In this document: piece by piece, positions 21,674 to 54,832 of the stretch
Layout: each line of letters begins with the position of its first letter
Position numbering within the stretch: the first letter of the stretch is position 1
Origin: an uncultured Bacillota bacterium
Lineage (GTDB): Bacteria > Bacillota > Dehalobacteriia > UBA4068 > UBA4997
Direction: 5' to 3'
Assembly: GCA_948907985.1 (NCBI GenBank)
Contig: CAQWMM010000004.1
Location: forward strand, 319 to 64,318
DNA length: 64,000 nucleotides
The notes under the pieces: generated by a model
The model's database searches: none
Told to the model about the DNA's origin: nothing
Seen by the model: only the letters and a program-made list of their open reading frames with translations
Made by a program: the position numbers and the translations under genes

Positions 21674-23005
21674 CTATTTAACCACTTCAACCAGCTGCTG
21701 GACATATTTTTGGCAAAGCTCGTCAGAGGCGGCCTCCACCATCACCCGCACCACCGGTTCCGTGCCGCTGGGCCGAATCAGCACCCGCCCCTCGCCGGCC
21801 ATTTGTTCCTCAATCTGCGCCGCCAGCTGTTGCAGGGCCGGATTATGCAGCGCCGCCTGCTTATCCGCCACCCGCACGTTCTGTAAGAGCTGCGGATAGG
21901 TTTTAACCGGCTCGGCCAGCTTGGAAAGCGGCACTTTGCGCTCCAGAATTACTTCCATCAGTTTAATGGCCGTCAAAATACCGTCGCCGGTGGAGGCATA
22001 TTTGCTGAAGATAATATGGCCGGATTGTTCGCCGCCCAGACGGTGGCCGTTTTGCAGCATATTCTCATAAACAAAGCGGTCGCCCACCGCCGTTTTCTCA
22101 TAGTCGATACCCAAAGCGTCGAAAGCCTTATAAAGCCCCAGATTGGACATCACCGTGGTTACCACCGTATTATTAAGCAGCTTGCCTCGCTCTTTCATAT
22201 AACGGCCATAGATGTAAAGAATTTTATCGCCGTCCACCACGCGGCCCTGCTCATCCACAGCCAGGCAGCGGTCGGCGTCGCCGTCAAAAGCGAAGCCAAC
22301 GTCCAAATGCAGCTCGCGCACCAGATTTTGCAGTTCTTCAATGTGGGTGGAACCGCAGTTCATATTAATGTTGGTGCCGTCTGGCTCGTTGTTGATCGCG
22401 GTGGTTTTCGCGCCCAGAGCGTCAAAAATGCTTTTAGCCAGCATCCAGGCGCTGCCGTTGGCACAGTCCAGCCCCACCCGCATTCCGCGGTAAGAGCGCA
22501 CCGCCAGCGAGATTAAATAGCCCATATAGCGGTTACGCCCGGCGGTGTAATCAACGGTGCAGCCAATTTCATCCCGCAAAGCCAACGCCGGCTCTGGCGA
22601 GCCGCTGTCCAGATATTCTTCCAGCCGGGCAATCGTTTCCGCGTCCATCTTCTCGCCGCGCTCGTTCAAAAGTTTAATGCCATTGTCATAAAAAGGGTTA
22701 TGGCTGGCCGAAATCATCAGGCCGGCGTCGAAATCCTCGGTGCGCACCACATAAGAAACGCTGGGCGTGGTGGTAACATGCAGCAGATAAACATCGCCAC
22801 CGCAGGAGGTCAGCCCGGCCACCAGCGCATATTCCAACATATAGCTGGAACGCCGCGTGTCCTTGCCGATCACAAAACGGCAGCGCCGCCCCCGAAGCTG
22901 CCGGTAATACCCCGCCAGAAAACGGCCGATTTTATAGGCGTGCTGCGCCGTCAAATCCACGTTGGCCTCCCCCCGGAAACCATCGGTGCCAAAATACTTA
23001 CCCAT
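21674..23005 (-). CDS. glmM: phosphoglucosamine mutase
   Basis: The GTDGFRG and SASHNP motifs are present. The start is moved to MGKYFGTDGFRG (RBS GGGGA). The listed ORF start at 23047 is probably an over-extension. Confidence 0.85.
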   Translation of the reverse strand: MGKYFGTDGFRGEANVDLTAQHAYKIGRFLAGYYRQLRGRRCRFVIGKDTRRSSYMLEYALVAGLTSCGGDVYLLHVTTTPSVSYVVRTEDFDAGLMISASHNPFYDNGIKLLNERGEKMDAETIARLEEYLDSGSPEPALALRDEIGCTVDYTAGRNRYMGYLISLAVRSYRGMRVGLDCANGSAWMLAKSIFDALGAKTTAINNEPDGTNINMNCGSTHIEELQNLVRELHLDVGFAFDGDADRCLAVDEQGRVVDGDKILYIYGRYMKERGKLLNNTVVTTVMSNLGLYKAFDALGIDYEKTAVGDRFVYENMLQNGHRLGGEQSGHIIFSKYASTGDGILTAIKLMEVILERKVPLSKLAEPVKTYPQLLQNVRVADKQAALHNPALQQLAAQIEEQMAGEGRVLIRPSGTEPVVRVMVEAASDELCQKYVQQLVEVVK

Positions 23006-23160
23006 ACAATCATCCCCATAACAGAAATTATACTTATATTTTATCATAAAAAAACTTGGCTGTCTAGTTTCCGGCCCAATTATTGCCTTATTTTATAGAC
23101 CTGAATTAAGTCCTGCCGAATTAAATTTTACCAATTTAGCAAAAAATTTGTCCACAGGCC

Positions 23161-23189
23161 TTGACAAGCGCCGCCGCATTTTGTATAAT
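23161..23189 (+). promoter_or_regulatory. consensus sigma-A promoter of the tRNA cluster
   Basis: TTGACA (23161-66), 17-nt spacer, TATAAT (23184-89), with an extended TG. Confidence 0.55.
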
Positions 23190-23219
23190 ATTTTATGCGT
23201 GATTGAGAGACATTGCAGT

Positions 23220-23308
23220 GGAGAGGTACCGAAGCGGTCATAACGGAGCGGTCTTGAAAACCGTCGCACAGCAATGTGTCGTGGGTTCGAATCCCACCCT
23301 CTCCGCCA
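23220..23308 (+). tRNA. tRNA-Ser (anticodon TGA)
   Basis: The acceptor stem pairs GGAGAGG with CCTCTCC, the anticodon loop is CTTGAAA, the variable arm is long and CCA is encoded. Confidence 0.85.
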
Positions 23309-23325
23309 ATTTACGCACTTGACAT

Positions 23326-23420
23326 GGAGAGTTGGCCGAGTCGGTCGAAGGCGCTCGCCTGCTAAGCGAGTATACGGGCAAAAACCTGTATCGGGGGTTC
23401 GAATCCCCTGCTCTCCGCCA
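23326..23420 (+). tRNA. tRNA-Ser (anticodon GCT)
   Basis: The acceptor stem pairs GGAGAG with CTCTCC, the anticodon loop is CTGCTAA, the variable arm is long and CCA is encoded. Confidence 0.8.
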
Positions 23421-23534
23421 CTAAATGAACACTTAACGATCGACAAGACCAGCAAAGCTGGGCGAAGACAGAGTTTAGTGTGAATTAATCCATTTGGCTT
23501 TAGGCAAATGGTTAGCTTATGATTTTATTTACAT

Positions 23535-23611
23535 GTGCTACTAGCTCAGCTGGATAGAGCGTCTGGCTACGGACCAGAAGGTCGGGGGTTCGAATCCCTC
23601 GTAGCACGCCA
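23535..23611 (+). tRNA. tRNA-Arg (anticodon ACG)
   Basis: The acceptor stem pairs GTGCTAC with GTAGCAC, the anticodon loop is CTACGGA, the T-loop is GGTTCGAATCC and CCA is encoded. Confidence 0.85.
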
Positions 23612-23645
23612 AAAGCGTCCACTTTTTTGTGGACGCTTTTTCTCT
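23612..23645 (+). terminator. intrinsic terminator after the tRNA cluster
   Basis: The hairpin is agcgtccac-tttttt-gtggacgct, followed by ttttt. Confidence 0.6.
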
Positions 23646-23761
23646 CTTATAAACACCGATTATGTTAATAAACGGGATAACTTTTAGAAAGTTTTTCAAC
23701 CAAAATTTTCCCGCTTTTAGCCAAACCCGCACCACGCATAGCTTGTCAGAATCACCAATTC

Positions 23762-23802
23762 TGTGGAAAACCCTGTGGAAAAGTGTGGAAAACAGTGGAT
23801 AA
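23762..23802 (+). promoter_or_regulatory. cluster of four phased DnaA-box-like repeats upstream of sbcD
   Basis: TGTGGAAAA occurs three times and AGTGGATAA once, starting at 23762, 23774, 23784 and 23794 (10-12 bp phasing). These are reverse complements of TTTTCCACA and TTATCCACT. Confidence 0.5.
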
Positions 23803-23856
23803 CTTGCTTATTTAGAGCTCAAAAGCCTTAGATTGTAAAAAAAAGGACTTTACACC

Positions 23857-25011
23857 ATGAAATTAATCCATCTGGCCGATTTGCATATCGGCAAAAGCTT
23901 AAATGATTACAGCCTGATTGACGACCAGCGTTATATTTTGCAACAGATTTTACAGCTGGCGCGTCAGCATCAGGCTGACGCCGTGCTGCTGGCCGGCGAT
24001 ATTTACGATAAGGCCGTCCCCAGCGAGGAGGCCGTCCGCCTGCTGGACGAATTTTTGCAGGGCCTGACCGAACTTAACCTGCCGGCGTTTATAATCAGCG
24101 GCAACCATGATTCTGACGAGCGGCTGAACTTCGGCAGCCGTCTGTTTGCCAAAAACCAGATTTATATTGCCGCCAAATATAACGGCCAACTTTATCAAAA
24201 AACCTTGCAGGATGAATTTGGCCCGGTTAACTTTTATCTGCTGCCTTTTGTTAAAGCCTCGCAGGTACGGCATTTTTTCCCCGAGGCCGCCATCGCCAGC
24301 TATGATGACGCGGTGCGTCTGGCGGTCGGCCAGGCCGAAATTGACGTCAGTCAGCGCAACGTTTTGCTGACGCACCAATTTGTAACCGGACGCGGGGCCG
24401 AAGCCAACCCGGAACTGGCCGGCTCCGAAACTGCGGCGGCGCTGACCGTCGGCACGGTGGAGCGGGTTTTCGCCGATTGTTTCGCCTCTTTCGATTACGT
24501 CGCCATGGGGCATATTCACGCCCCCCAGCCGGTAGGCGGCGCAACCGTCCGCTATGCCGGCTCACCCTTAAAATATTCGCTGGCCGAGGTTAACAATCAA
24601 AAATCCGTCCCGCTGATCAGCCTGGGGCCCAAAGGCAACTGCCAGGTGGAGCTGCTCCCCCTGCGCCCCCGGCGCGAACTGCGCTGCCTGAAGGGGCGCC
24701 TCAACCAGCTGCTTAGCCCGGAAAATATCCAAAATACGGACGATTATATTTACGCCGTTTTAACGGATGAAGAACCGATTACCAACGCCATGGGCATTTT
24801 TCGCCAGTATTACCCCAACACCCTTAAAATCGGCTATGATAACGCCCACACCCGGACAGCCGCCCAGCCTGATCCTGATAAAATCCGAACAAATAAGCCC
24901 CCTTTAGAACTCGTGGCGGATTTTTATCAAATGATGTATGGCTGTGAGATCAGCCCGGCAGAATTGCAGATTATGCAGCAGGCCGCCCAAAAGGCAGGTG
25001 TTCCGTTATGA
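23857..25011 (+). CDS. sbcD: exonuclease SbcCD, nuclease subunit D
   Basis: 384 aa. The N-terminus is MKLIHLADLHIGK and the calcineurin-like phosphoesterase motifs are present. Confidence 0.9.
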   Translation: MKLIHLADLHIGKSLNDYSLIDDQRYILQQILQLARQHQADAVLLAGDIYDKAVPSEEAVRLLDEFLQGLTELNLPAFIISGNHDSDERLNFGSRLFAKNQIYIAAKYNGQLYQKTLQDEFGPVNFYLLPFVKASQVRHFFPEAAIASYDDAVRLAVGQAEIDVSQRNVLLTHQFVTGRGAEANPELAGSETAAALTVGTVERVFADCFASFDYVAMGHIHAPQPVGGATVRYAGSPLKYSLAEVNNQKSVPLISLGPKGNCQVELLPLRPRRELRCLKGRLNQLLSPENIQNTDDYIYAVLTDEEPITNAMGIFRQYYPNTLKIGYDNAHTRTAAQPDPDKIRTNKPPLELVADFYQMMYGCEISPAELQIMQQAAQKAGVPL

Positions 25012-28000
25012 AACCGTTAAAATTGACGATCAGCGCAATCGGCCCTTACGCTGCCCAGCCGCCGGCCATTGACTTTGAACAATTCGCCCCCCGCGGCCTG
25101 TTTCTGATTTCCGGCGATACCGGCGCGGGCAAAACCACAATTTTTGACGCTATCTGTTTTGCCCTCTACGGCGAAACCAGCGGCCAGTGGCGCAGCACGG
25201 CCAATCTGCGCAGTCAGTTTGCCCAGCCGGACACCCCCAGCTTTGTGGACTTCACTTTCAGCAACCAGGGCCAGATTTACCGTCTGTACCGTCAGCCCGC
25301 CTATGCCCGCCCTAAAAAGCGGGGCGGCGGCCAAACCCAGGAGACGGAAAAGGCTACGCTCTACTGCGGCAACGAGCCGCCAATCGAGGGCAAAGTTCAG
25401 GTTAACAAACGCGTTCAGGAGATTTTGCAAATCAACTTTCAGCAGTTCAAGCAAATTGCCATGATTGCCCAGGGCGAGTTTTGGAACCTGCTGAACGCCA
25501 CCACCAAGGAACGCACTAAAATTTTGCGCACCATTTTTATGACCTCCCCTTACCAAAATCTGGAGGCCGAACTGCGCAGCCGCCGTGCCGAAAGCCTGAA
25601 AAACCGCCAGCGGTTGGAAAACAGCGTTATCCAATATTTTCAGGAAGCCGCCGCCGCAGACGACAGCCCCCTGGCCGGCCGGCTGGCCGAACTGCAAACC
25701 CGGGCCAGGCAAAGCGGCAGCGCCTGGAACCTCGAAGATATGCTGAATATTTTAGCCGAACTGCAAGACGAAGACCAGGCCAGGCTGCAAACCGCCAATA
25801 ACAGCCTGCAAACGGCCCAAACCGCTTTAGACCGGCTCAAAGAACAACTAGCCACCGCCAAAGTAAACAATGATTTTTTACAGCGCCGGGAAACATTTCA
25901 GCAGCAACAGCGACAGCTGGCCGAAGAGGCCGGGGAGGTCAAACAGTGCGAACAGCTGTTAACCCGGCAAAAGGCCGCCCGGCGCGAGGTTCTGCCCGCT
26001 TATCAACGCTGGCAGGAAAACGCACAGGCGGTTGAAAAGACGGCGACAGACATTGCCGAACAGCAGAGCAGGCTGCAAAAAGCCCGGCAGGATTTAACCG
26101 CCGCCGAAAGCGCGCGCCAACAAAAGCTGCAAAGTAAACCCCAGGCCGAAGAGCTAAATCAGCAGGCCCGGCGGCTGGCCGAAGATATTGCAAAATATAC
26201 CCGGCGCGACGAACTGCGCCAAACCGCCGCCCGACTGCAAGAAGAGGGACGGCTCTGCCAGCGGGAGGAAGAAAATCTGCGCCAAACGAACAAGGATCTG
26301 CAAAGCAAAATCGCCGCTCTGGAGGCGGAAATTGAACGCTGCCAAAACGCCCCCGCCCAGCTGGTTGCCAGCCAAAGCCGCGGCAAAGAACTGCAAAAAA
26401 TCTTTGAGAGCGCCCAACAGCTTTTGCAGCAAACCATTCCCCAATATAAAAAGGCCAAAAACGCCCTTGCCGCCCAGCAGGCCGCTTTTGCCAAAGCGCA
26501 AAACGCCTGGCAGCGGCTGGACGAAGAATATAAGCGGCAGGAAATTATTCTGGAAAACTGCCGCGCCGGCATTTTGGCCCAAAGCCTGCAAGAGGGCGCA
26601 CCCTGCCCGGTCTGCGGCGCAGTTCATCATCCCCGGCCGGCAGCCCTGCCCGCGCAGGCCATCTCCGAAGAAGAACTGAAACACAGCAAGGAACTGGCCG
26701 AGGCGGCGCAAACGCAAAAAAATAATTTACTGACCGAAGTGGAAACCAGCAAAAACACCTTACAACGGCAAGGGCTGGAACTGCGGCAAAAGGTTTTGGA
26801 GATTCTGCAAAACGAATACGCGCCCGCCCTCGAGCAGGCCGCAGCCGCCGCCGGCGGCGACGAACTGGAGCGGCTGCTTAAACAAGCTATAACCGGTTTT
26901 GAACAACAACAGCAAGAAAATCAGCAGGAACAGGATAATCTGACCAAAGATTGCCAAACCTATCAGCAGGCCGGCCAACAACTGAACAAAGCCCGCAATG
27001 AGGAAACCGCCAGTCTGAAAACCCGCCAGGAACAATGGCAGCAACAGCGGGACAACTATCAGCAAGCCTGGGCGGAAAATCAGGCGCAGCTTGGCGGCCT
27101 GACCCAACTGGAGTTTGCCGATGCAAAGGCCGCTGCCAACGCCCAACAGCAGTGCGAACAGCAGGCGCAGGCTATTTTGCAGGCTATCGAGCAGACCGAA
27201 CAGCATTTTGCCAATGCCCAAAACCAGCTTAGCCGGGCAGAAAGCGCCCTGCAAACTCTGGAAACCAACCTAAAGGAGCAACAGGCTAAAGCGGCGGCCA
27301 GCCGGCAGATCCTTGCTGACGCCTTGCAGCAAAAAGGCTTTACTGATACTGCCGAATTTAAGTCCGCGCTGGCTTCCGAGCAGGCAATCGCCGCCGCCGA
27401 GGCAGCAATCAACGACTATTACAGCCGACTGACAGCCAACCGCCAACAGCTGCAACAGGCGGAACAAGACGCAGACGGCAAAACGCCGATTGACGAAGAA
27501 GAGTTGGAGCAACAAATCCAGGAGCAAACCTGCCGGCTGCAAGCTTTTCAGCAAGTCAGCAGCGCTATCAGCCACCGTATAGACGATAATCAGCGCCGCT
27601 TTGCCAATATCGACCGGCAGAAAGCTGATTTGGCTAAATACCGGCAGGAATATGAACTTTGCAGCCGCCTGTGTAATCTGGTTGGCGGCAACATTAGCGA
27701 AAAGGCTAAAATCACGCTGGAGCAATATATTCAGGCTGCCGGCTATGACAGTATTATCGACGCGGCCAACCGCCGGCTTTTGCCGATGAGCGATGGCCAG
27801 TTTGAACTCTTCCGCCAGAATAAGGCCGGCAATATGCAGAGCGAAAGTTTTTTGGATTTGGAAGTACAGGATAATTTTACCGGCCGGCGGCGGCCGGTGG
27901 GCAATTTATCCGGCGGCGAAAGCTTTAAGGCCTCGCTTAGCCTGGCACTGGGCCTTTCCGATACCATATCCGGCAGTTTGGGCGGCATACAAATGGACGT

Positions 28001-28202
28001 GCTGTTTGTGGACGAGGGTTTCGGCACGCTGGATAAAAAATCCATTGAAAGCGCGCTGGAAATTCTAACCGGCCTTTCTGCCAGCAGCAAGCTAATCGGC
28101 GTTATCAGCCACCGCGAGGAATTACGGGAAGCTATCCCCCAGCAAATTAACGTTCGCAAAAGTCGCACCGGCAGCAGCCTTATTATTGACACCGGATTTT
28201 AA
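25008..28202 (+). CDS. sbcC: exonuclease SbcCD, ATPase subunit C
   Basis: 1064 aa. Walker A GDTGAGKTT is present. A long Q/A/E-rich coiled coil carries the zinc hook CPVCG. The C-terminal signature and D-loop are present (LSGGESF...DEGFGTLD). Confidence 0.9.
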   Translation: MKPLKLTISAIGPYAAQPPAIDFEQFAPRGLFLISGDTGAGKTTIFDAICFALYGETSGQWRSTANLRSQFAQPDTPSFVDFTFSNQGQIYRLYRQPAYARPKKRGGGQTQETEKATLYCGNEPPIEGKVQVNKRVQEILQINFQQFKQIAMIAQGEFWNLLNATTKERTKILRTIFMTSPYQNLEAELRSRRAESLKNRQRLENSVIQYFQEAAAADDSPLAGRLAELQTRARQSGSAWNLEDMLNILAELQDEDQARLQTANNSLQTAQTALDRLKEQLATAKVNNDFLQRRETFQQQQRQLAEEAGEVKQCEQLLTRQKAARREVLPAYQRWQENAQAVEKTATDIAEQQSRLQKARQDLTAAESARQQKLQSKPQAEELNQQARRLAEDIAKYTRRDELRQTAARLQEEGRLCQREEENLRQTNKDLQSKIAALEAEIERCQNAPAQLVASQSRGKELQKIFESAQQLLQQTIPQYKKAKNALAAQQAAFAKAQNAWQRLDEEYKRQEIILENCRAGILAQSLQEGAPCPVCGAVHHPRPAALPAQAISEEELKHSKELAEAAQTQKNNLLTEVETSKNTLQRQGLELRQKVLEILQNEYAPALEQAAAAAGGDELERLLKQAITGFEQQQQENQQEQDNLTKDCQTYQQAGQQLNKARNEETASLKTRQEQWQQQRDNYQQAWAENQAQLGGLTQLEFADAKAAANAQQQCEQQAQAILQAIEQTEQHFANAQNQLSRAESALQTLETNLKEQQAKAAASRQILADALQQKGFTDTAEFKSALASEQAIAAAEAAINDYYSRLTANRQQLQQAEQDADGKTPIDEEELEQQIQEQTCRLQAFQQVSSAISHRIDDNQRRFANIDRQKADLAKYRQEYELCSRLCNLVGGNISEKAKITLEQYIQAAGYDSIIDAANRRLLPMSDGQFELFRQNKAGNMQSESFLDLEVQDNFTGRRRPVGNLSGGESFKASLSLALGLSDTISGSLGGIQMDVLFVDEGFGTLDKKSIESALEILTGLSASSKLIGVISHREELREAIPQQINVRKSRTGSSLIIDTGF

Positions 28203-28393
28203 AACCTCATTTCTTCATAAAATACCAGTTCGCTAACCGGCATACAGGTTTGCTGCCGCCGAAATTCGCCCGCCAGTTTTAAATATACGAAAACTACCTG
28301 ATTTAGGGCCCTGCGGCCTTTAAAAAATGTTGCAAAGCACCGGAAAATATGGTAAAATAAAAAAATAATTATTATGCTTGAGGTGTGGCCAAA

Positions 28394-28783
28394 ATGCAAA
28401 TCAGAGAATCCGCCGAGGATTATTTGGAAACTATCCTGATCCTGAAAGGCGAAAACGGCAATGTTCGTTCCATAGATATAGCGCACCATCTGGGCTTTTC
28501 CCGCCCCAGCGTCAGCATTGCCATGAAGAACCTGCGCGAAAACGGCTATATCAACGTATCCGACGACGCTCTGATAACCCTCACCCCACAGGGCCTGGCG
28601 GTGGCCGAGCGCATTTATGAGCGCCACCAGATTTTAACTGACTGCCTGCTGCGCCTGGGCGTTAGCCCGGAAAACGCCCGCGCCGACGCCTGCCGCATTG
28701 AACATGATTTGAGCGAGGATAGTTTTGCCAAAATCAAGGCATATTATTTAGAAGTTTTGGCCGCAAAAACAAGCGGTGAATAA
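28394..28783 (+). CDS. DtxR/MntR-family metal-dependent transcriptional regulator
   Basis: The start is [17 protein letters not shown], with an RBS GAGGTG and a promoter TTGCAA-17-TAAAAT. Only the HTH and dimerisation domains are present. The listed ORF used a GTG 9 nt upstream. Confidence 0.7.
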
Positions 28784-28811
28784 AATTTTTTTGACAAAAG
28801 GAGTTTTCTCA

Positions 28812-30473
28812 ATGGAAAAAACGGAAGAGAAAGAAAAAATTATGGCCGGAAATTTTATCCATGATGAGATCGAAAGCGATTTGGCGGAAGGGCACAGCCA
28901 GACGGTTCACACCCGTTTCCCGCCAGAGCCTAACGGTTATCTGCATATCGGCCACGCCAAAAGCATTTGCCTTAATTTTGGCGCCGCCCAAAAATATAAA
29001 GGACTTTGCAACCTGCGCTTTGACGATACCAACCCCGCCAAGGAAGAGCAGGAATTTATGGATTCGATTAAAGCAGATGTACGTTGGCTGGGCTTTGACT
29101 GGCAGGACAGGCTTTTTTACGCCTCCGACTATTTTGAGCAAATTTATGGTTATGCCGTTGAGTTGATTAAAGCCGGCAAAGCCTACGTTTGCCAACTCTC
29201 CACCGATGAAATGCGCGAGCACCGCGGCACTATCGGCGTGCCGGCCACCTCTCCCTGGCGCGATCGTCCGATTGAGGAAAGTCTGGATTTGTTCAGCCGG
29301 ATGCGCGCCGGCGAATTTGCCGACGGCCAATACACCCTGCGCGCCAAAATTGATTTAGCCTCGCCCAACTTTGTAATGCGTGATCCGGTGATTTATCGGA
29401 TTCAGCACGGCGAGCATAACCGCACTGGCAACGATTGGTGCATTTACCCCATGTATGATTTTGCGCATCCCCTGTCCGATTCGCTGGAGGGCATCACTCA
29501 CTCCATTTGCACTATGGAATTTGAAATTCACCGCCCGCTTTACGATTGGGTTATCGCCAACACCAGCTGCCCCACCAAAAGCCGGCAGATTGAGTTTGCC
29601 CGCCTGAACCTCACGCATACGGTAATGAGCAAGCGTTTTTTGCGCCGTCTGGTGGAGGAGGGCAAGGTGCGCGGCTGGGATGATCCCCGCATGCCCACAA
29701 TCTCCGGTTTACGCCGCCGCGGTTTCACGCCGGAGGCAATCCGCGATTTTTGTGAGCGTATCGGCGTAGCCAAAGCCGACAGTATCGTGGACTATGCCCT
29801 GTTGGAACATTGCCTGCGCGAGGACTTAAATGCCCGCGCCGACCGGGTTATGTGCGTGCTGCGGCCGCTTAAAGTAGTAATCACCAATTATCCGGAAGAC
29901 GGACGGGAAATGTTGCCCATTGAAAATAATCCGGAAAAACCGGAGCGCGGCAAACGCCTGCTGCCTTTTGGACGCGAAATCTATATTGAGCAGGATGATT
30001 TTATGGAAGAACCGCCAAAGAAGTTTTTCCGCTTAAAACCCGGCGGCGAAGTGCGCCTGAAAGCCGCCTATATTATCAAGTGTGAAGAAGTTATCAAAGA
30101 CACTGACGGCAACATTACCGAGCTGCACTGCACCTATGATCCGGAAACCATCAGCGGCGGCTCCAGCACCAAAAAGGTTAAGGCCACCATTCATTGGGTA
30201 AACGCCAAAGAATGTAAAACTGCTGAGGTTCGCCTATATGATTATCTTTTTACAGATGAGAATCCCTCACCGGCCAGCGGCGACTTTATGGACAGCCTAA
30301 ACCCAAATAGCCTGCAAGTTTTATCTAATGCTAAAATTGAGTCGCTGTTGCCTATGCCGTCCGAGAAATTCCAATTTCTGCGCCATGGTTACTTCTGCGT
30401 TGATCCGGATACCGAAAATGATCATCCCGTATTTAACCGTATTGTATCCCTCAAATCTTCTTTTAAAGTTTAA
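28812..30473 (+). CDS. glnS: glutaminyl-tRNA synthetase
   Basis: The class I HIGH motif appears in [19 protein letters not shown]-like VMSKR is present. The start is moved to MEKTEEK (RBS AAAGGAG). Confidence 0.9.
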
Positions 30474-30572: not shown

Positions 30573-31436
30573 CTATATCTCAACACGCGCCCGCAGTAAA
30601 AGCTTTTGCATTTGTCTTTTACTCAAACAAATTATAAAATGCTGTGCGTCATAAACCCATTCCTGCTTATTAATTTCTGCCAGCAATGCCTGATAGGGAA
30701 CCGAACCAGCCAGCCGCCCGTCAAAAACCAGCCCCACATACCAGTTATTTAGCTGCCAATCCTGCCCGCTTATACACAAATTAGCGTCATAGGGCAACAC
30801 CGAGGCCACATCGGCCGTCAGAACATATACGCCGAATAATTCACCATCTTTTTTCTTATAGACATTAGCCTTGGCATAATATAAATCTTGTGATTGCAGC
30901 TTATGCAAATAGTTATCAAATTTTCTGGTGTCACCGCCAATCAGCCGCAAGGAATGTTCATCAAGCGAGATTGGGTTTTTTACGCCACAAATATTCAAGT
31001 TTAGGTATTTGCCGCTACAAACATCCGCCAGCATTTGCAGCAAAACGCGCTCACTGGTTTTAATATCCAGACGAATACACTCGTCAAGTCTCGCCAGCGT
31101 CATTTCCTCACCGTCACGTTCAAACACCATTGTTTGCAGCCTGTGGCATATTTTTTTTATAAAATTGTAGAAAAAATGTATATCGCGCCAGCCGCTGGGC
31201 AATGATAAACGTAGCGCTATCTCGCCAGGCTCGCTAGCAAACTCAAAACCGCGGCATATATTATTTGAATCAAAAACTACCGTATATTTACCTAAAACAT
31301 TTTCCTGCAAACAGTAGTTATTATCCATAACCCCATAACACATACCCGGCAACAGAAACGACGGCAATGCAAGCTCTTGATCTTTTCGCATACTTCTAAT
31401 TATTACATTTACCGCCATATTAAAAATTAGGCTCAT
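30573..31436 (-). CDS. hypothetical protein, uncharacterized
   Basis: 287-aa ORF with non-repetitive composition and no recognisable motifs. It is adjacent to the small-peptide cassette array. Confidence 0.55.
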   Translation of the reverse strand: MSLIFNMAVNVIIRSMRKDQELALPSFLLPGMCYGVMDNNYCLQENVLGKYTVVFDSNNICRGFEFASEPGEIALRLSLPSGWRDIHFFYNFIKKICHRLQTMVFERDGEEMTLARLDECIRLDIKTSERVLLQMLADVCSGKYLNLNICGVKNPISLDEHSLRLIGGDTRKFDNYLHKLQSQDLYYAKANVYKKKDGELFGVYVLTADVASVLPYDANLCISGQDWQLNNWYVGLVFDGRLAGSVPYQALLAEINKQEWVYDAQHFIICLSKRQMQKLLLRARVEI

Positions 31437-31533
31437 TTATCATATTTGTGTTTTTTCATATTATATCAAAAGTCCAATATTATGTCAAATAAAATTATTT
31501 TAATAAATAGACTATTCTAATTATAAACAAAAT

Positions 31534-31640
31534 AACCTCCCTTGGTTTCCCATTGGAGGTTTCTTTTACTCTTTTCTAAACAAAGGCTTGCGCCATTGTC
31601 TATCATCAAATTTTGCAAACAATCTAAACTTCTTCCCAGA
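31534..31640. repeat. conserved inter-cassette element copy 1 (bidirectional terminator-like hairpin plus ~75-nt conserved segment)
   Basis: The hairpin aacctcccttggtttcccattggaggtt is followed by tctaaacaaaggcttgcgccattgtctatcatcaaattttgcaaacaatctaaact. Two further intact copies lie at 32507-32615 and 32960-33055. Confidence 0.6.
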
Positions 31641-31733
31641 ATTTTTCCAATTTTCGCCTTTAATCTAGCTTTTTAGCACACAGTATGCTATAATATAGTT
31701 ACTCACCGCCTCAGGCAGAGAGGAGGTGATTTC

Positions 31734-31826
31734 ATGAATTTTTTTATCTCATTTGCCATCGTTGTCTTGGGTAACATAACCTCTCATTATGCTATCAAAT
31801 GGTTGGACAACATATTTAAGCGGTAG
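31734..31826 (+). CDS. Fst/Ldr-like type I toxin candidate, 30-aa hydrophobic peptide MNFFISFAIVVLGNITSHYAIKWLDNIFKR
   Basis: Extended -10 TGCTATAAT (31686-94). RBS AGGAGGTG 6 nt before the ATG. One TM helix and a charged KWLD..R tail. It is followed by a bidirectional terminator and a convergent promoter. The peptide is too short to appear in the ORF track. Confidence 0.55.
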   Translation: MNFFISFAIVVLGNITSHYAIKWLDNIFKR

Positions 31827-31867
31827 TCAGCCTGGGTTTAAGCTACCCTACTTAGTTAAAAAGAATA

Positions 31868-31938
31868 GAAGAACCTCAGCGGCAACTGGGGTTCTTCGTT
31901 TTGCAACTTGATGATTTCATGAATTTTTATTCTCTCAT
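31868..31938 (-). ncRNA. candidate antitoxin antisense RNA 1 (convergent, RNAII-like)
   Basis: Minus-strand promoter TTGACT-17-TAGAAT (plus coordinates 31969-74 and 31946-51). The transcript would end at the shared hairpin 31871-31894. It contains the complement of the toxin translation-initiation region via the direct repeat at 31909-31940. Confidence 0.45.
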
Positions 31939-32019
31939 TGTTATCATTCTACCACACTTACCTAAAAAAGTCAACCCCATTTCTTCACAAAAAAAGCACC
32001 CCCAGTTTCCCGGGGGAGC

Positions 32020-32120
32020 TTTTCGCCTTACTCAAAACCAAGCATTAAAACTCTTCTTGGCTCCCCCTTTGGGGGAGCTGTCAAATATAAGCTGAAAGCT
32101 TTTATTTGACTGAGAGGGCT
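32020..32120. repeat. MITE-like element copy C (partial), inserted into the spacer element of cassette 2
   Basis: Contains gctccccctttgggggagc and caaatataagctgaaagcttttatttg, and ends with gactGAGAGGGct. It replaces the tctaaacaaagg...ttttg part of the conserved spacer. Confidence 0.45.
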
Positions 32121-32241
32121 ATACAAACAATTTGATCCCTTCCCTAAATTTTTTCAATTTTCGTCTTTAATTTAGCTTTTTAGCACACAGTATGCTATAA
32201 TATATTTGCTAAGCGCCTCTTGGCAGAAAGGAGGTGCGAGT

Positions 32242-32331
32242 ATGAATGTATTACTTTCCATTGCCTCTGCCGTTACGGCAAATGTAATCTCCTATTATGT
32301 TTGCAAATGGCTAGACGGCAGACGGCGCTAA
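32242..32331 (+). CDS. Fst/Ldr-like type I toxin candidate, 29-aa peptide MNVLLSIASAVTANVISYYVCKWLDGRRR
   Basis: Extended -10 TGCTATAAT (32193-201). RBS AAAGGAGGTG. Hydrophobic helix plus KWLDGRRR tail. Same cassette architecture as cassette 1. Confidence 0.55.
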   Translation: MNVLLSIASAVTANVISYYVCKWLDGRRR

Positions 32332-32389
32332 GTTAGCCTGGGTGTAAGCTACCCTACTTACTTAAACAAAAAGTTCGTTAAACAGAATA

Positions 32390-32462
32390 GAAGAACCCCA
32401 GCTGCAACTGGGGTTCTTCGTTTTGCATTTGTGCAAATATGAACATATTACTTTAATTTCCT
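32390..32462 (-). ncRNA. candidate antitoxin antisense RNA 2
   Basis: Minus-strand promoter with perfect consensus TTGACA-17-TATAAT (plus coordinates 32492-97 and 32469-74). It ends at the bidirectional hairpin 32393-32416. The direct repeat 32433-32461 mirrors the toxin RBS/start. Confidence 0.5.
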
Positions 32463-32717
32463 TTTATTATTATACCACCAACCCAATCTTTTGTCAAGCA
32501 CAAAAAGAACCCCCTCTCAGTTTCCCATTGGAGGTTTATTTTACTCTTTTCTAAACAAAGGCTGGGAGCCACTGTCTATCATCAAGTTTTGCAAACAATC
32601 TAAACTCTTTCCCAAAATTTTTCCAATTTCAGCTAAACTTCTGGCTTTTTCCCATACCCTGTGCTATAATAGACTTGACCGCATTAAACATACCTGCGGC
32701 GGAGGGAGGTGGGAATT

Positions 32718-32801
32718 TTGCTAGGTTGGTTTCTCACAGTGCTCGGCACCGTAATTGCAAACGTGATTTCTGATTGCATAAGCAAATGGTTAGAACGGTG
32801 A
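32718..32801 (+). CDS. Fst/Ldr-like type I toxin candidate, 27-aa peptide (TTG start) LLGWFLTVLGTVIANVISDCISKWLER
   Basis: Extended -10 TGTGCTATAAT (32662-70). RBS GGAGGGAGGTG 6 nt before the TTG. There is no in-frame ATG, and a GTG 7 codons downstream is an alternative start. Hydrophobic helix plus KWLER tail. Confidence 0.45.
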   Translation: MLGWFLTVLGTVIANVISDCISKWLER

Positions 32802-32839
32802 TAAACAAATCTAATCGGGTCTAGGCTACCTTTAAAGCC

Positions 32840-32914
32840 AGAAAACCCCCAGGTTGCGACTGGGGGTTTTCTCTTTCTAATTTACTAAGTTTTTTCTCAC
32901 AGCTTTAACTTTCT
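32840..32914 (-). ncRNA. candidate antitoxin antisense RNA 3
   Basis: Minus-strand promoter TTGACA-17-TATAAT (plus coordinates 32944-49 and 32921-26). It ends at the hairpin 32843-32870. The direct repeat around 32876-32905 (tttttctcacag) mirrors the toxin start region. Confidence 0.5.
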
Positions 32915-33059
32915 GTATTAATTATACCACCAAGCCAATCTTTTGTCAAGCACAAAAAGAACCTCCCTCAGTTTCCCAAGGGAGGTTCTTCAAACTCATT
33001 TCTAAACAAAGGCGTGAGCCATTGTCTATCATCAAGTTTTGCAAATAATCTAATTTAGA

Positions 33060-36000
33060 TTATTTGATTATTACATTAACAGCGATGACATTCTCACCGT
33101 CTTTCAAAGTAACGTCTGCTTTCTTAATTGTACATTCAAAAACACCGCTCTTTGTCTCGTCAATATCGACTATATCCGCATCAAGCCAAGTAGCATTCAG
33201 CTTAACTTCGATATCTTTAACTTTGTCAGAACCATTGTTTTCAACAGTGAAAGTGATTGCGGAAGTCTTATCCTTAACTGTTCCTACTTCGAAATCATGG
33301 AATCTAACAGTATCGCCATCTTTGTCTTTAACTGTCAGTTTGATATCCTTCTTGAAAGTTGCTTTAGAAGAAGTCTTATCGTCTTCATCATAATCTCTGT
33401 TGGTAACATATTCGTCTACCAATACTGCACCTGCATAACCGTCATCGTTGATAAACGGAACATATGCGTAGGAGTTTCTGCTAATATCGCTCAAAGCGCC
33501 TTCTCTGTACTTACCAGTGTTAGAATCCAGAACGTAAACCACGGTATTAGCGTCTGTCATTACGCGATTTACATAAACATTATTTCCATCAATGTTTGCT
33601 TCATCGCCATAATTCTCATCATCATTATGGAACTCATCCATATAATCGATAAGTACAACAGGATCTTTGAAATAAATCCAGCCGTCATTGAAACCGCTTA
33701 CCAATTTAGCTAAATTGGTCAAGCCATCGGTCTTTTTATAAGACGCCAAAATGTCGATCTCATCACCGGACAATGTGTAAACAATGAAATGACCTGCACC
33801 AGGTTTAGCACCATTAAGAACATCACCCAGATCATAAACTTTATCGTCGCCCTCCAAAGTGATAGCGAAATCGTCTTCACCATTGCTCATAAAGCCAGCA
33901 TGATCAGCATCAGTGAACTTCCAAGCCTTGATTACACCGTAGTACTTGGTGCTGCTATGAGAAGAAGTATAAGCAAATGCTTTAATGCTATGGTTGGTAT
34001 TGCTTATATACTTGGCATAAGCCTGAACAGGCAAGAACTTATAACCATCTGTAGTCAACATTTTAACATCGTCAACTGTTTCTGGCTCAAAATCGCCGCC
34101 GCTCAGCAACGCAGAACGTGTTACTAAAGATACATCCAGTTCATTTTCATCTTCGCCAACCTCAAAAATAACTACATTCGAGGCCAAGGAAGCGGACAAT
34201 CTAGTACCAGTGCTAGTGCCATCTGCTGCTTTTACAGGCTCAGTTACCAAATAAGCGTTGTTCTTAACCTGAATCTCGGTGTTGCCACCATCCAGCATAT
34301 TAGTCCAAGCGCTACCAACTAACTTACCATCTTTATATGCGTCATTACCATTTGCATCTTCAGCATTCCAACCGCCACTAATAGTCTTAATAGCGCCGTC
34401 AGCATTCAACTTATAGGCTACCGGCTGACCCATATATTTCTGTACCATTTCAGTATTCTGCGGTTTACCTTTGCAGTCCTTTGACAAATCATAGGTTACA
34501 GTGTAACCTTCCTGCGTAAACAGGGTGATTGTGGACATGCTCTTGCCCCAGCTGCCGTTGCCGCCACCGTCAACAACTACGCCGTAAAGGGTTGTACCGG
34601 TAGAAGTTTCGTCAACGATAATAGCTGCAATGGTGTTATCCTTATTCAGCAAGTATTTAACATTGTTGTTGTAAACATCTTCAGATGTTACATCAGACTG
34701 TTCCAGATCTTCTTCGTAGAACTGCGGATTCAATGTTACAATACCATCAACATCCTCATCTGCTTTTTGATTAGGATCATTTACAAACACATATTTCTTG
34801 CCGCCGATTGTCGCTTTATGCTGATACCACTTAATATCATCACCATCTTTAAGCGTTCCAACCTCGGTACGGGTAAAGTCGCCGGATTGATCAGTTACTT
34901 TAACATACAATTCGCCTTCTTTGATCTCTCTGATAGCATCGCCAACCTGCAAATCGGAGGGAGCAACAAACTTGCCATCAGCATAAACCAAAGTATCAGC
35001 GTCGTTCATGTTAACAGTCTTGGTCTTGCTACCTACCAAACGAGCAGATGCAGTGGTCATGCTCTTAACGTAGTAAGCTTTGTCTTCAAAATCTCTGTCA
35101 GATGCTACATAGTAAACCTGATCGTCATCATTGAAGTACATAGAATAATTGGTATTCTTCCAATCTTTTTCTACATCATCGGTCAGAGTAGGATCTTTTA
35201 CAGCATTGTAGTTAGTGGAAAGAACTTTAACCTTATTATCGCCATTCTGTTCAACCTTATCGGTTACAGTCTGGATATAAGATTCAACTTCGATAAAACG
35301 AGCATACTTTCTGTCGCCCTCAGTTACATAATAAACTTTGCCCTGATGATGTTCCAAATCGAACAAACCTTCAGCATTGTGGGAAACAGCAGTGTTTTCG
35401 TCAACAATAACATTACCGTCAAAATTATCTTTGCCTACTTTGTTATCGTTGGTGTCTTTTGCCAAGTTGGCAATACGACCAGCAACGTTCCAGTTCAATG
35501 TTTTATCAGCAACATTGCGAACCTGGTTAATAGTAGCAAAGTCATCTACTTCGATAAAGGAACCCTCAAAGCTGTCGTCCAACAAAGTGATGTAGGTAGA
35601 ACCGCTCTTCGTTGTCTGTTTGTAAACAAACTCATTGGTATCTTTATCATAAGTAACAATAGCAGTATCCAATGCTTCACCCAGCATAACAACGATGTCG
35701 CCACGTTTTGCAGCAGCGCTGGCAACGATAGATACATCGTCCATAATGCCAATCTGGTTAGCTTTGGTTACATAGTTTACCGGCCAGCTGCCAGTCAGGT
35801 TGTCATTGTAGCCCAACAAACGCAGCAAAACGGTAATAGCCTCCTGGTTGGAGATGGTATCATTCGGACGGAAGTTGCCGTTGGTGTCGCCCTTGAAAAT
35901 GCCAAGGCTCTCAGCAGCATTAATCCAACCGGTATACCAGCTATTTGCACGAACATCTTTGAAAGCGCTAGCGTTGGCCTCCAACATTGTAGCGGTTTCT

Positions 36001-36236: not shown

Positions 36237-36402
36237 CTTTCTTTTTCCTCCTTATAAAGTTGGTACATTGATATCGGTTGAAGTCCAACCGATTCCCCAA
36301 GCCCCCTCGGTCGGCTCTCAAAACCCGCCGAAGAAACTTTTCACCATAATTACAATCACTGAAACAAAAAACTTGCGCACAAATTAAAATTTTCTTTAGA
36401 AA

Positions 36403-36431
36403 ATTTTAATTTAGCACTTAACGATTGACAA
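36403..36431 (-). promoter_or_regulatory. candidate promoter of the S-layer gene (long ~160-nt 5' UTR)
   Basis: On the minus strand TTGTCA-17-TAAAAT. On the plus strand the -35 is tgacaa at 36426-31 and the -10 is atttta at 36403-08. Confidence 0.45.
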
Positions 36432-36943
36432 GTCCAAAGGACGCAGTCAGAGTTTAGTGCGTGTGCGTCCATTCGCACAGCGAATGGATTCCTTTCTTCG
36501 TTCCCGAACCAACTTTGCAAGTCATCTTCCCCGAGGCCGCCAACTCCGCCTAAAAAGTCAGCCCAAGCCGCGCTCCGGCCGGCCTGTTTTGCCGAATAAC
36601 AAGCCGCCCATCCTGCCCCCAGGCACAACCCCTCAAACAGTTTGGCGGTTTTGCAAAATCTGCATAGACCTAACAAAGCCTGTCCACAAACTCCCGACTA
36701 TTAGCACAGTCAGAGTTTGCCGATTCATAGACCCGCACAGCAAACCTATAAACCCTTGTTCCTATAATTATGATGTGGTTTTAAGTGAAACCTCCACCAA
36801 TATCATATATATACTACTACATCTGGACAAAAAAAACAACCCTTTTTCCACAATTAATTTAAAAATTTCTACATAATTTCCACAAGCATACTTTTTAACA
36901 AAAACCGGTTGACTTTTTCCTTTTCTTCTATTATAATAAATAT

Positions 36944-37033
36944 AAAGCACCGCAAGTAAGCGGTTGGCCAGCTTTGGTTAAACATTTCATGAACGTCAAC
37001 CGCCACTATTGGCACTAGTGGCGGTTGTTTTTA
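36944..37033 (+). ncRNA. candidate small RNA (consensus promoter plus intrinsic terminator, no ORF with RBS)
   Basis: The promoter is TTGACT (36908-13), 17 nt, TATAAT (36931-36). The terminator hairpin caaccgccactattggcactagtggcggttg (36996-37026) is followed by ttttta. Confidence 0.4.
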
Positions 37034-37237
37034 TGTGTACGTTTTAACTCGACTGTAAACGTAAAGTTCCCAAGACGAATCACTATACGCAGGGACATAT
37101 GCCTCACCCCCTTTCGAGGGAATTTTGGCTAACCGCCTACCGTAGTTTTGCAGTGCTGGTATAATTATAATAATAAAATCGTTTTTTGTCAACTAAATAT
37201 ATTTGAAATATAAAATTTTTTATGCTTTAATTATCAA

Positions 37238-37265
37238 AATAACCTCCCACCAAAATTTTGGTGAG
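37238..37265 (-). terminator. intrinsic terminator downstream of the fabK-like gene
   Basis: On the minus strand the hairpin is cctctcaccaaaa-ttttggtgggagg, followed by a T-rich run. Confidence 0.5.
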
Positions 37266-37275
37266 AGGTTATTCT

Positions 37276-42950: not shown

Positions 42951-42976
42951 ATACTCCCCTGGTCTTAAAATGTTTA

Positions 42977-42996
42977 AATGTTTCACATGAAACATT
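42977..42996. promoter_or_regulatory. parS-like site (AATGTTTCACATGAAACATT), one mismatch from the palindromic TGTTTCACGTGAAACA
   Basis: Inverted repeat with 9-nt arms and a 2-nt spacer. It lies within a ~50-nt block duplicated at 45263-45312. Confidence 0.55.
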
Positions 42997-43240
42997 TTTT
43001 ATAATTTTGACAAACTATTTTACAATAATTATCTAATAAAAGATTTTCTTTATAGAATAAATTCTGTTTTTGATACTCTTTTTTAGTATTGACAAACAAT
43101 TTTATAATAATTATCTAATAAAAGTTTTTCTTTATAGAATAATATATTATTCTGGCATAGAATTTTTCTCTAAAAAATAGGAAACCTTTCTATCATATAT
43201 AATAAGATATTTTCTCCAGAATGTCAAGATTATAAAAAAA

Positions 43241-45148: not shown

Positions 45149-45269
45149 TCTTCTTAAAATCTTGACAAACTATGTGTCATAATTCCTCTCATATCATTTC
45201 ATCTCTATAAAAATAGGACTACTTTCTAAAATATTAGAATAACCCCGCTCCGAATTTTCAAAGCCTTAA

Positions 45270-45289
45270 AATGTTTCACATGAAACATC
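45270..45289. promoter_or_regulatory. second parS-like site (AATGTTTCACATGAAACATC)
   Basis: Same inverted repeat as 42977-42996, in the same flanking context (cttaaaatgtttcacatgaaacat.ttttataat.ttgaca.actat). Confidence 0.5.
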
Positions 45290-45428
45290 TTTTATAATAT
45301 TGACAGACTATATTACGTTATACTTCTATTAAAATTTTATCTCTATAGAATAGGATTGCTTTTCTAAAATACTAAACTAAACCCTCTCCTGATTGCCAAG
45401 GCCTCAAAAAATCCGGAATGCCAAAGCC

Positions 45429-49822: not shown

Positions 49823-50761
49823 ATGAATAAACAGGAAGTAATTAACCGTCTGCATGAAACCAGTCAGGCTCTGGAACAGCTGGCTCAGCATTTAAGCGAG
49901 CTGGAACCAGCGCAGGCGGAAACCGAAACCAGCCCGACAGCGGATATAACAGCTGCGGCAGACACAACAGACATAACAGACGCAACAGATACTTCGGATG
50001 CGACAGAAGATGAAGAAGACCCCGCCCCCCCGGCCGAATTTATATCGCACGCGGAAACCAATTCAGAAATAGCCGATTTAATTATCGAAACCACTTTTGA
50101 GCCTATCGACGATGAACCGGCAAAAAAAAATGACGATTCAACCAATTCTTCGGTCAAAAGCGCTAACGCCCCCTTCAATTTTTCAGCAAACGGTTCAAAT
50201 AATAACCCATTTGCTAAAATTATCAACAATCTGTTGAGCAAACCAATTCCCAATGCCAACAATCTGGGCGCTTTTAATCCTCTGCAAATGTTAACCGGCG
50301 GACTTGGCGGTTTGCCCGGAGGGCTATCAGGTTTGCCCGGAGGGCTATCAAATTTGCCCGGCTTAAACGGTCAATCCCTGCCCGCCACTCTGGCCGAACT
50401 GCATGATAACCCTCAACTTTTAGGTATGATTAAAAATGTCAGCAACAATCCACAAATGCTTAATATGCTCTCTGCCCTGACCGGACAGGACAGTCAAACC
50501 CTCCAACAAACCCTGCAAAGCTTACAGCCCAAACCTGACAACATCACTGCACAACCAAACAGTCAACCCGGCGTTCAATCAGACGTTCAGCCAACAATTC
50601 AAGCTGCCGCCAGACAGGCCGCTATACCGCAAACTGAATTTACTCCCTTAAATATTGCCAATTCTGCTGACGCCGCCGGTAGTCTGCCTTCCACTCCCTA
50701 CCTTGATTCTCTGCTGGCCGAATGGCATTGGCAGCCCTACGCCCGCGCCTGGAATTTTTAA
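49823..50761 (+). CDS. hypothetical acidic low-complexity protein with GGLPGGLSGLPGGLSNLPGLNG repeats
   Basis: Start at MNKQEVINRLHE with RBS AAGGAGG. The central region is Asp/Thr-rich (TADITAAADTTDITDATDTSDATEDEED). The listed ORF start at 49601 overlaps the preceding gene and is probably wrong. Confidence 0.55.
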   Translation: MNKQEVINRLHETSQALEQLAQHLSELEPAQAETETSPTADITAAADTTDITDATDTSDATEDEEDPAPPAEFISHAETNSEIADLIIETTFEPIDDEPAKKNDDSTNSSVKSANAPFNFSANGSNNNPFAKIINNLLSKPIPNANNLGAFNPLQMLTGGLGGLPGGLSGLPGGLSNLPGLNGQSLPATLAELHDNPQLLGMIKNVSNNPQMLNMLSALTGQDSQTLQQTLQSLQPKPDNITAQPNSQPGVQSDVQPTIQAAARQAAIPQTEFTPLNIANSADAAGSLPSTPYLDSLLAEWHWQPYARAWNF

Positions 50762-50847
50762 GATATTGACAAACTATGTTAGGTAATGCTGTTATGTAGG
50801 GATATTCTATATAGAATAAAAAGTGCCTCTAAAAACATACTTTAAAC

Positions 50848-54334: not shown

Positions 54335-54832
54335 AAATCAGTAATACTCCCTTCCTGGTCAGCATATTAATAAGCAAACAGTTTTTATAAATTCTTATCA
54401 TCATTATTATCATTTAAACGGTGGTAGTAGTAATAGGCGGTGTTTATTTTGTGGAAAACTTTTTTCAGCTTTGATTTTTAGGGGGTTTGTTTAAATTTTA
54501 GTCCTGGGAAAACCTATGGGATTTTTGTTGGAAAATACTGTGCATAATTTCCGTTATACACCGCCGCGCCCATTTTTTAACTTTTTGCCAACAGGCGATG
54601 TGTAAAAAGTTTTCCCAAATTCTGTATAATCCGGTGGAAAACTTTTTTTGTGTTCAACTATTATACTATAAATAACTGATTTTCACAATAGCTTTTTAAA
54701 ACTCTTTTTCACTAATCCACAATTAATCACAACAGCGCGCTGTTATTCAGCATAAAAAAAATCCTACCGTTTTTTCAGGTAAGATTTTTTTTATGCGAAG
54801 TAATATTTTTATTAACATTTTATTTACATATT
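54335..54832. promoter_or_regulatory. oriC region part 2 (dnaA-dnaN intergenic): DnaA-box-like sites and AT-rich unwinding-type sequence
   Basis: ttgtggaaaac, ccggtggaaaac and taatccaca are DnaA-box variants. A long A/T stretch (aaaaaaaatcctaccgttttttcaggtaagatttttttt) is a candidate unwinding element. Confidence 0.5.

Follow-up and report, generated by a model that had tools for sequence, protein, structure and literature searches.

What does a tight row of four DnaA boxes do in front of the sbcDC operon, well outside the replication origin? The row lies in a stretch of 64,000 nucleotides, hereafter the window, and its letters at 23762–23802 read TGTGGAAAA ccc TGTGGAAAA g TGTGGAAAA c AGTGGATAA. 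The boxes start at positions 23762, 23774, 23784 and 23794, that is with spacings of 12, 10 and 10 bp, and all of them have one orientation. In the canonical reading, on the minus strand, they correspond to three copies of TTTTCCACA and one copy of TTATCCACT, and in the window each box has one mismatch to the DnaA-box consensus TTATCCACA. The initial annotation, which had described four head-to-tail boxes with 12/10/10 spacing, is borne out by direct reading of these letters. It had also placed the array about 55 bp upstream of sbcD and about 30 kb from oriC. Between the array and the ATG of sbcD (23857), a gene which is confirmed by NCBIfam, there are 54 nt, and the array lies inside the 216-bp gap which extends from the terminator of a tRNA operon to sbcD (Table 1). 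As both dnaA and dnaN are found in the window and the GC skew, which is negative throughout 2–54 kb, changes its sign at ~54 kb, the distance between oriC and the array is ~30.5 kb.

Table 1. Coordinates of the array, of its neighborhood and of the origin region in the window
Feature	Position	Strand	Remarks
tRNA-Ser(tga)/tRNA-Ser(gct)/tRNA-Arg(acg) operon	23220..23640	+	upstream of the array
Strong intrinsic terminator of the tRNA operon	23611-23640		
Conserved motif TTTTCAACC	23693..23701	+	columns invariant in five lineages; two mismatches from TTTTCCACA, orientation opposite to the array
Conserved motif TTGTCAGAAT	23743..23752	+	CTGTCGCAAT in relatives; five aligned lineages
DnaA-box array	23762..23802	-	four head-to-tail boxes; spacers of 3, 1 and 1 bp
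Box 1	23762..23770	-	TGTGGAAAA in the window
Box 2	23774..23782	-	TGTGGAAAA; invariant in all lineages
Box 3	23784..23792	-	TGTGGAAAA; invariant in all lineages
Box 4	23794..23802	-	AGTGGATAA in the window; promoter-proximal, weakest box
Weak -35-like TTGCTT (putative)	23804..23809	+	19 nt upstream of the -10-like element
-10-like hexamer TAGATT	23829..23834	+	26 nt beyond box 4; putative promoter element of sbcDC
sbcD	23857..25011	+	Mre11-type nuclease subunit, 384 aa; NCBIfam TIGR00619, 155 bits (cut-off 77.65)
sbcC	25008..28202	+	Rad50-type ATPase subunit (NCBIfam)
dnaN	53222-54334	-	
oriC, dnaA-dnaN intergenic region	54335..54832		TGTGGAAAA at 54450 beside a DnaA-trio-like run (~54421-54437)
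dnaA	54833-56182	-	

The array is too dense to be a chance arrangement of boxes. Among 300 windows simulated with a first-order Markov model none contained four boxes in 41 bp; the maximum was three boxes, reached in 4 of the 300, and thus the cluster is beyond chance. In the window the pattern TTWTNCACA occurs 12 times (5.9 expected), and the array is the sole site with four boxes of at most one mismatch within 200 bp. Another measure is the index A, for which the affinities of four successive boxes are added up and the sum is divided by the mean gap between the boxes. The threshold of A is 0.3; values above this threshold separate the DnaA-box clusters bound in ChAP-chip from the remaining genome of Bacillus subtilis (PMC2533591). 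When the boxes are scored with this density and affinity index, as had been suggested together with the initial annotation, the array reaches A = 1.5 and is the densest cluster of the window; the second-best value, 0.233, belongs to the best stretch of oriC. The region 23762–23802 consists of four successive boxes with at most one mismatch from TTATNCACA and A > 0.3, which is the rule for a DnaA-box cluster (DBC) of the B. subtilis type, and like a DBC it is intergenic and close to oriC. The initial annotation had regarded helical phasing as the hallmark of such clusters; in B. subtilis, however, box density and not phasing defines a DBC.

The index was also applied to those relatives that have enough flanking sequence. 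Values above 0.3 are reached in L001, L087 and L089. The group scored also includes L091/L103, L095 and L096, in which the strict four-box value is below 0.3 (0.04–0.24), because box 4 has two mismatches there. In 529 kb of sbcD-containing Clostridia loci from 80 other species only one site exceeds 0.3. This site is located at 93–149 in another Lachnospiraceae MAG (L023), whose SbcD is 58% identical; it comprises four TGTGGATTA boxes as part of a 17-bp tandem repeat, which closely precedes an ORF of 190 aa and is found ~2.9 kb upstream of sbcD. The oriC-proximal 64 kb as a whole have a two-fold excess of boxes with at most one mismatch from TTATNCACA (97 in the window, 49.5 expected from a first-order Markov model), and at 44316–44561, within mnmG, a perfect TTATCCACA is accompanied by two near-perfect boxes.

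Is the array maintained? The nearest species-representative SbcD matches are mostly from Lachnospiraceae/Acetatifactor MAGs. The exact SbcD is encoded on seven contigs from mouse-gut-type assemblies, and the six contigs retrieved all carry the identical array. Altogether the array is kept, with the same orientation and phase, in six species-level lineages with 68–100% identical SbcD. It is present at 97% SbcD identity in L087 and L088, at 86% in L089 and L090, at 70% in L091–L094 and L103, at 69% in L096–L098 and at 68% in L095 as well as in L162, where the contig begins in the middle of box 1 and the array is present from there on. In the five aligned lineages 36 of the 41 columns are invariant and the pairwise identity is 94%. 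When the two groups of lineages are compared, the array is 93% identical, the 100 columns upstream 52% and the stretch from the array to the start codon 37%. Variation is confined to the outer boxes. Two lineages have TGTGGAAAA as box 1, and L091, L095 and L096 have the perfect consensus TGTGGATAA; L162, which reads ..GTGGATAA where its contig starts inside the box, is counted as the fourth lineage with a perfect box 1. Box 4 is found as AGTGGATAA, AGTGGAAAA or GGTGGAAAA. All substitutions are either A/T swaps at the W of TGTGGAWAA or affect the first base of box 4. Outside the array, the motif at 23743–23752 resembles the Spo0A 0A-box without matching it.

At SbcD identities of 64–65% the array is absent. 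There sbcD is found 3 bp after a GH10 gene or behind an MFS gene, and the array was lost along with the whole upstream region. None of the 80 species-representative loci has a box cluster within the 300 bp upstream of sbcD, and 69 of them have no box at all in this stretch. A general feature of sbcDC in Clostridia is therefore rejected, as the cluster is missing from all 80 loci and at 64–65% SbcD identity. The conservation at the orthologous position, put forward as a check in the initial annotation, is in its favor, like the box scoring: with flanks that have diverged, six lineages with SbcD identities as low as 68% keep the array. It is not universal, being absent at 65% and below and in 80 other species. 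Judged from these alignments, the array is under selection and is maintained within one clade of roughly genus level.

These comparisons also bear on the simplest explanation, namely that slippage made a short tandem repeat which is neutral and has no function. Tandem Repeats Finder indeed reports the array as a short tandem repeat with periods of 10 and 12 bp, and the same unit builds up long satellites in some of the metagenome stretches described below (L128, L139, L151 and L159). Slippage could have created the tandem repeat, but since the array is conserved we regard it as maintained. A neutral microsatellite would vary in copy number, whereas six lineages with flanks that are only 37–52% and SbcD proteins that are 68–86% identical share one copy number and one phase. 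This pattern effectively refutes the neutral repeat, to which we assign a negligible probability.

Which protein reads the array is a separate matter. The spacers are as conserved as the 9-mers, and thus conservation cannot show which bases are read. Hence a different protein that recognizes direct repeats phased at 10–11 bp, for example a response regulator of the OmpR/PhoB type, has to be considered, in which case the likeness to DnaA boxes would be coincidental. Direct repeats just upstream of a weak -35 element are the classical layout of an OmpR/PhoB-type activator, and the 10-bp period with two spacers of only 1 bp is tighter than the 2–3 bp preferred by E. coli DnaA. However, the full 9-mer is the box variant of the organism's own origin: of the six copies of TTTTCCACA in the 64 kb, five are found either in the array or on the two sides of dnaA, in the adjoining intergenic regions (54450 and 56337). 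In addition, box 1 is the textbook consensus in four lineages. The origin itself has the layout expected for the basal unwinding region of a Firmicute, with a trio-like run GGTAGTAGTAATAGG followed by GCGG, a degenerate box and TGTGGAAAA (54421–54458), and the oriC boxes of this genome are mostly TTTTCCACA and not TTATCCACA.

The DnaA protein of the organism is in keeping with these boxes. Its domain IV aligns without gaps to domain IV of E. coli DnaA (PDB 1J1V) and retains the equivalents of the box-reading residues R399, D433, H434 and T435. Two of the six base-contacting residues differ, as P423 and H439 of E. coli are replaced by Asn here (P423N, H439N), and both positions vary also in the DnaA structures of Aquifex and Mycobacterium. 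From this alignment, DnaA of the organism should read such boxes.

Similar arrays are found elsewhere. In metagenome contigs the pattern TGTGGAWAA N TGTGGAWAA NN GTGGAWAA, which stands for three boxes with a 10-bp period, was found in 59 stretches, of which only L103 belongs to the sbcD clade. Eight flanking genes are annotated: lysS (L116), pyrB (L133), mraZ (L143), parA (L140), the dnaB helicase gene (L156), a DnaD-like gene (L158), and genes for an alpha/beta hydrolase and a PP-loop ATPase. Thus, tight head-to-tail box arrays are a recurrent architecture which is partly found beside genes for replication and partition. Another phased array, in L127, is situated ~4.5 kb from a dnaA fragment. 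In viral contigs the phased triple-box pattern has no match (0 stretches), and a phage origin of the array is rejected. Triplets with the same 10-bp phase that unrelated contigs have next to parA, dnaB and a DnaD-like gene speak against a response regulator, and together with the box identity they make a protein other than DnaA an improbable reader. We therefore consider it likely, with good confidence, that the array binds DnaA. It is very probably a true DnaA docking site, of a kind that is already known and that is now seen for the first time at sbcDC.

If DnaA binds, what is the array selected for? An answer has to start from the neighboring genes. As sbcC overlaps sbcD by 4 nt, both genes form an operon. 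The module appears to belong to this operon and not to the tRNA genes on the other side. The tRNA operon is complete in the window and in L091/L103; the contigs of L089 and L095 begin inside tRNA-Arg, and L162 comes without upstream sequence. In L096 there is no tRNA gene in the 586 bp of contig upstream, and nevertheless the array and ~150 bp of partly conserved upstream sequence are kept. Thus the module belongs to sbcD, and the array as a feature of the tRNA operon is rejected. The three tRNA genes, sbcDC and glnS (23220–30473) are on the plus strand, unlike the remaining genes at 2–54 kb, which nearly all have the minus orientation. These plus-strand genes are therefore transcribed head-on to the forks coming from oriC (~54.4 kb). 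The GC skew is weakest, with -0.02 to -0.09, at 24–30 kb.

Between the array and sbcD we find a candidate promoter. A scan with the promoter consensus did not report any promoter from the array to sbcD, and the sequence 3′ of box 4 is poorly conserved. Still, each of the six lineages has a -10-like hexamer that begins 26–27 nt beyond box 4 (26 nt in the window, 27 nt in the others). The hexamers outside the window are TAGTTT, CAAATT, TAAATT, TAAATT and CAAAAT, two of which (CAAATT and CAAAAT) are weak. The distance from the hexamer to the start codon is less constant: it is 22 nt in the window and in L089, 43–45 nt in L091, L095 and L096, and longer in L162. The -35-like TTGCTT is not conserved in L091, L095 and L096, and no -35 element can be recognized in that group. 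A promoter at the -10-like hexamer would put the array at about -79 to -39, abutting the -35 region, where an upstream activator site would be expected. A promoter upstream of the array was considered as well, with TTTTCAACC or TGTCGCAAT as the -35 or -10 element on either strand, and was rejected since inspection yielded no acceptable pair of hexamers.

The same position invites an explanation that requires no sequence-specific protein at all. AAAA tracts start at 23767, 23779 and 23789, in phase every 10–12 bp and just upstream of the -35 region, so the array could be intrinsically curved DNA that stimulates the sbcDC promoter like an UP element. In clostridia, a stimulating effect on transcription is known for phased A-tracts that precede promoters. 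For curvature alone, however, the invariant TGTGG would be needless, box 1 has no A4 tract in the four lineages with TGTGGATAA, and box 4 has none in the window. We regard curved DNA as very improbable, although somewhat less so than the neutral repeat.

Several other functions were considered and rejected. A second origin or unwinding module would call for DnaA-trios, an AT-rich element or a switch of the GC skew, and none of these is present at the array; its 5′ flank gcatagcttgtcagaatcaccaattc has no run of TAG/TAA trios and is not AT-rich. An RNA element in the sbcD leader is not indicated either, as no Rfam family was found, the only matches being sub-threshold and to the terminator hairpin, and as the folding z-score is -0.48. 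A locus of the datA type with IHF is rejected, since the IHF consensus WATCAANNNNTTR matches three times in the window with no match between 10.6 kb and 31.8 kb. Co-regulation by LexA in the SOS response is rejected too: the Cheo box CGAACNNNNGTTCG was not found with up to two mismatches in 22363–25948.

Two readings are left that both accept binding of DnaA. According to the first, the array serves initiation control by titration or inactivation of DnaA near oriC, and its position at sbcDC is incidental. In favor of such a sink, the array is 30.5 kb away from oriC and the DBCs of B. subtilis act best in the vicinity of oriC; clusters near oriC are said to be common in Firmicutes (PMC3245932); the array has the top box density of the window; and its position directly downstream of the tRNA operon and terminator in the window and L091/L103 parallels the position of datA downstream of glyV-X-Y. 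But a pure sink would need neither the fixed orientation nor the fixed distance of 26–27 nt to the promoter element, there is no IHF consensus near the array, and four boxes hold only few DnaA molecules. Moreover, as seen in L096, the array follows sbcD and not the tRNA operon. We thus consider initiation control as the selected role to be rather unlikely, although it is the most serious of the alternatives.

According to the second reading, which we prefer, the array is selected mainly because it controls the sbcDC promoter, and it titrates some DnaA as a side effect; from the arrangement of the sequence elements we would give it a probability of about 0.5. The initial annotation had left it at a cluster that either titrates or regulates DnaA or makes sbcDC responsive to it. 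Its DBC-type reading is supported by the box density, and the fixed distance to the -10-like element and the co-inheritance with sbcD lean to promoter control.

In terms of mechanism, we suggest that the four boxes, which share one orientation and are 10–12 bp apart, would allow DnaA, most likely DnaA-ATP, to assemble cooperatively into a short oligomer. Where the distal box is perfect, as in four of the six lineages, the oligomer may nucleate there and grow towards box 4, the weakest one, beside the promoter. Given an array at -79 to -39, a -10-like element at a fixed distance and a poor -35 element, the occupancy of the proximal box would set the transcription of sbcDC. The layout favors activation of sbcDC, and repression at high occupancy may also be possible. 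In this manner the supply of the SbcCD nuclease, which acts on hairpins and DNA ends, could be coupled to the level of the initiator or to the replication status. At a distance of 30 kb from oriC the array is copied early after initiation, and hence it must also titrate some DnaA, like the DBCs of B. subtilis.

A more specific version of promoter control, which we put forward tentatively and consider possible rather than likely, is a switch of SbcCD gated by DnaA-ATP. Here the graded ladder with a strong distal and a weak proximal box would turn on sbcDC only at a high initiator potential. If so, the nuclease would be supplied in step with new rounds of replication and this would be the first direct wiring between the initiator and SbcCD. 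In that case the head-to-tail arrays of 10-bp period and 1-bp spacers would form a separate and widespread class of elements that nucleate DnaA oligomers, tighter than the 2–3-bp rule of E. coli.

Even in the simpler form, control of sbcDC by DnaA would be a replication-coupled and LexA-independent route for regulating a DNA-end nuclease, whereas an array that is only a sink for DnaA would be one more oriC-proximal DBC. SbcCD is a new candidate target of DnaA; it handles hairpins and protein-blocked ends that arise in replication. The array is moreover a phylogenetically footprinted example and could serve as a short natural substrate on which to study how DnaA binds cooperatively to boxes spaced by 10 bp. 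Our search of the literature found no work on DnaA-box clusters outside oriC or on DnaA-controlled promoters in Lachnospiraceae or other gut commensal Clostridia. Searching for DnaA together with sbcD or sbcCD returned reports on the replication and repair roles of SbcCD only, none of which concerns control of the operon by DnaA according to title and abstract. The term "sbc" was likewise not found by term search of papers on DnaA binding, including the main text of PMC11317965.

Other intergenic regions of the window have features of their own. The 1-kb gene-free stretch 36237–37275 contains TTTTCCACA (36844) and ATTTCCACA (36868) in the same orientation, 30–65 bp upstream of a consensus promoter TTGACT-17-TATAAT (36909–37, plus strand) that is followed by a terminator-like hairpin at ~36997–37032. 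This stretch is a candidate for a small RNA of ~85 nt, without an Rfam match and with DnaA-box-like sites upstream. A second gene-free stretch (31436–33060) comprises three direct repeats of ~450–520 bp (families D1, D2, D7, D10 and D15) with hairpin-like segments in each; Rfam yields sub-threshold matches only, and the GC content drops to ~0.39–0.40. A short intergenic repeat (family D19) is found with 74% identity at 23460–23494, between tRNA-Ser and tRNA-Arg, and at 36439–36473. Finally, promoter-like modules of 27–87 nt (..TATTGACAAACTAT..; families D3/D4) occur in up to eight copies around mnmG, at 42973–45352 and 50755–50781.

How does the array compare with known DnaA sites? The closest counterparts are the six extra-oriC DBCs of B. 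subtilis, namely gcp-ydiF, yqeG-sda, ywlC-ywlB, ywcI-vpr, yydA-yycS and thdF-jag (PMC2533591; PMC3245932). Their A values range from 0.36 to 1.64, with ywcI-vpr as the strongest cluster at 1.64 (PMC2533591). Joint deletion of these clusters leads to early initiation and they act best near oriC, and some of them double as regulators of promoters (sda, ywlC, yydA and trmE; PMC3245932). Like them, the array is intergenic and oriC-proximal and has at least four boxes with at most one mismatch from TTATNCACA, and its A of 1.5 is near that of ywcI-vpr. Unlike them, it is strictly head-to-tail with a 10–12-bp period (the mean gaps of the B. subtilis clusters are 3.7–21 bp), and sbcDC is not a neighbor of any B. 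subtilis DBC. The array furthermore belongs to an uncultured clade of Clostridia.

In E. coli, datA is situated downstream of the tRNA operon glyV-X-Y, and read-through from the operon modulates datA (PMC10950094). The array resembles datA in being a box cluster outside oriC and, in the window and in L091/L103, downstream of the terminator of a tRNA operon. On the contrary, datA needs an IHF site, which is missing near the array, is not a promoter element of the downstream operon and has a much larger distance to oriC. A second parallel in E. coli is binding of DnaA in vivo, which mainly takes place at tandem pairs of boxes 2–3 bp apart near genes for replication, repair and nucleotide metabolism (Stringer, Fitzgerald & Wade 2024, PMC11317965). 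The array shares with these double boxes the close spacing in the same orientation, with 3 bp between boxes 1 and 2, and a repair gene as target, but it has four boxes instead of two and two of its spacers have only 1 bp.

Control of repair and replication genes by DnaA has precedents as well: uvrB, recN, polA and nrdAB are regulated by DnaA (PMC8203912; PMC6015884), with uvrB and recN being co-regulated and polA being activated (PMC8203912). At such promoters DnaA is an activator or a repressor depending on occupancy and bound nucleotide (PMC8203912; PMC6015884). As in these promoters of E. coli and in sda and dnaA of B. subtilis, the boxes of the array are at or just upstream of a promoter, which is a candidate promoter in our case. 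In contrast to uvrB, the array is not accompanied by a LexA or Cheo box, and sbcDC would be a new target operon with a predicted mode of regulation.

The graded order of the boxes has its counterpart within the E. coli origin. There, arrays with a strong box at the end and weaker boxes of the same orientation about one helical turn apart guide the progressive filling with DnaA-ATP. The low-affinity arrays R4-C1-I3-C2-C3 and R5M-tau2-I1-I2 of this origin were reportedly described by Rozgaja et al. in 2011. The ladder of our array is alike, especially in the four lineages which combine a perfect box 1 with a box 4 of two mismatches; the array differs in that it is not part of an origin. DBCs and DnaA-regulated promoters are thus already known, and the new points are the target operon sbcDC and the tight 10-bp ladder.
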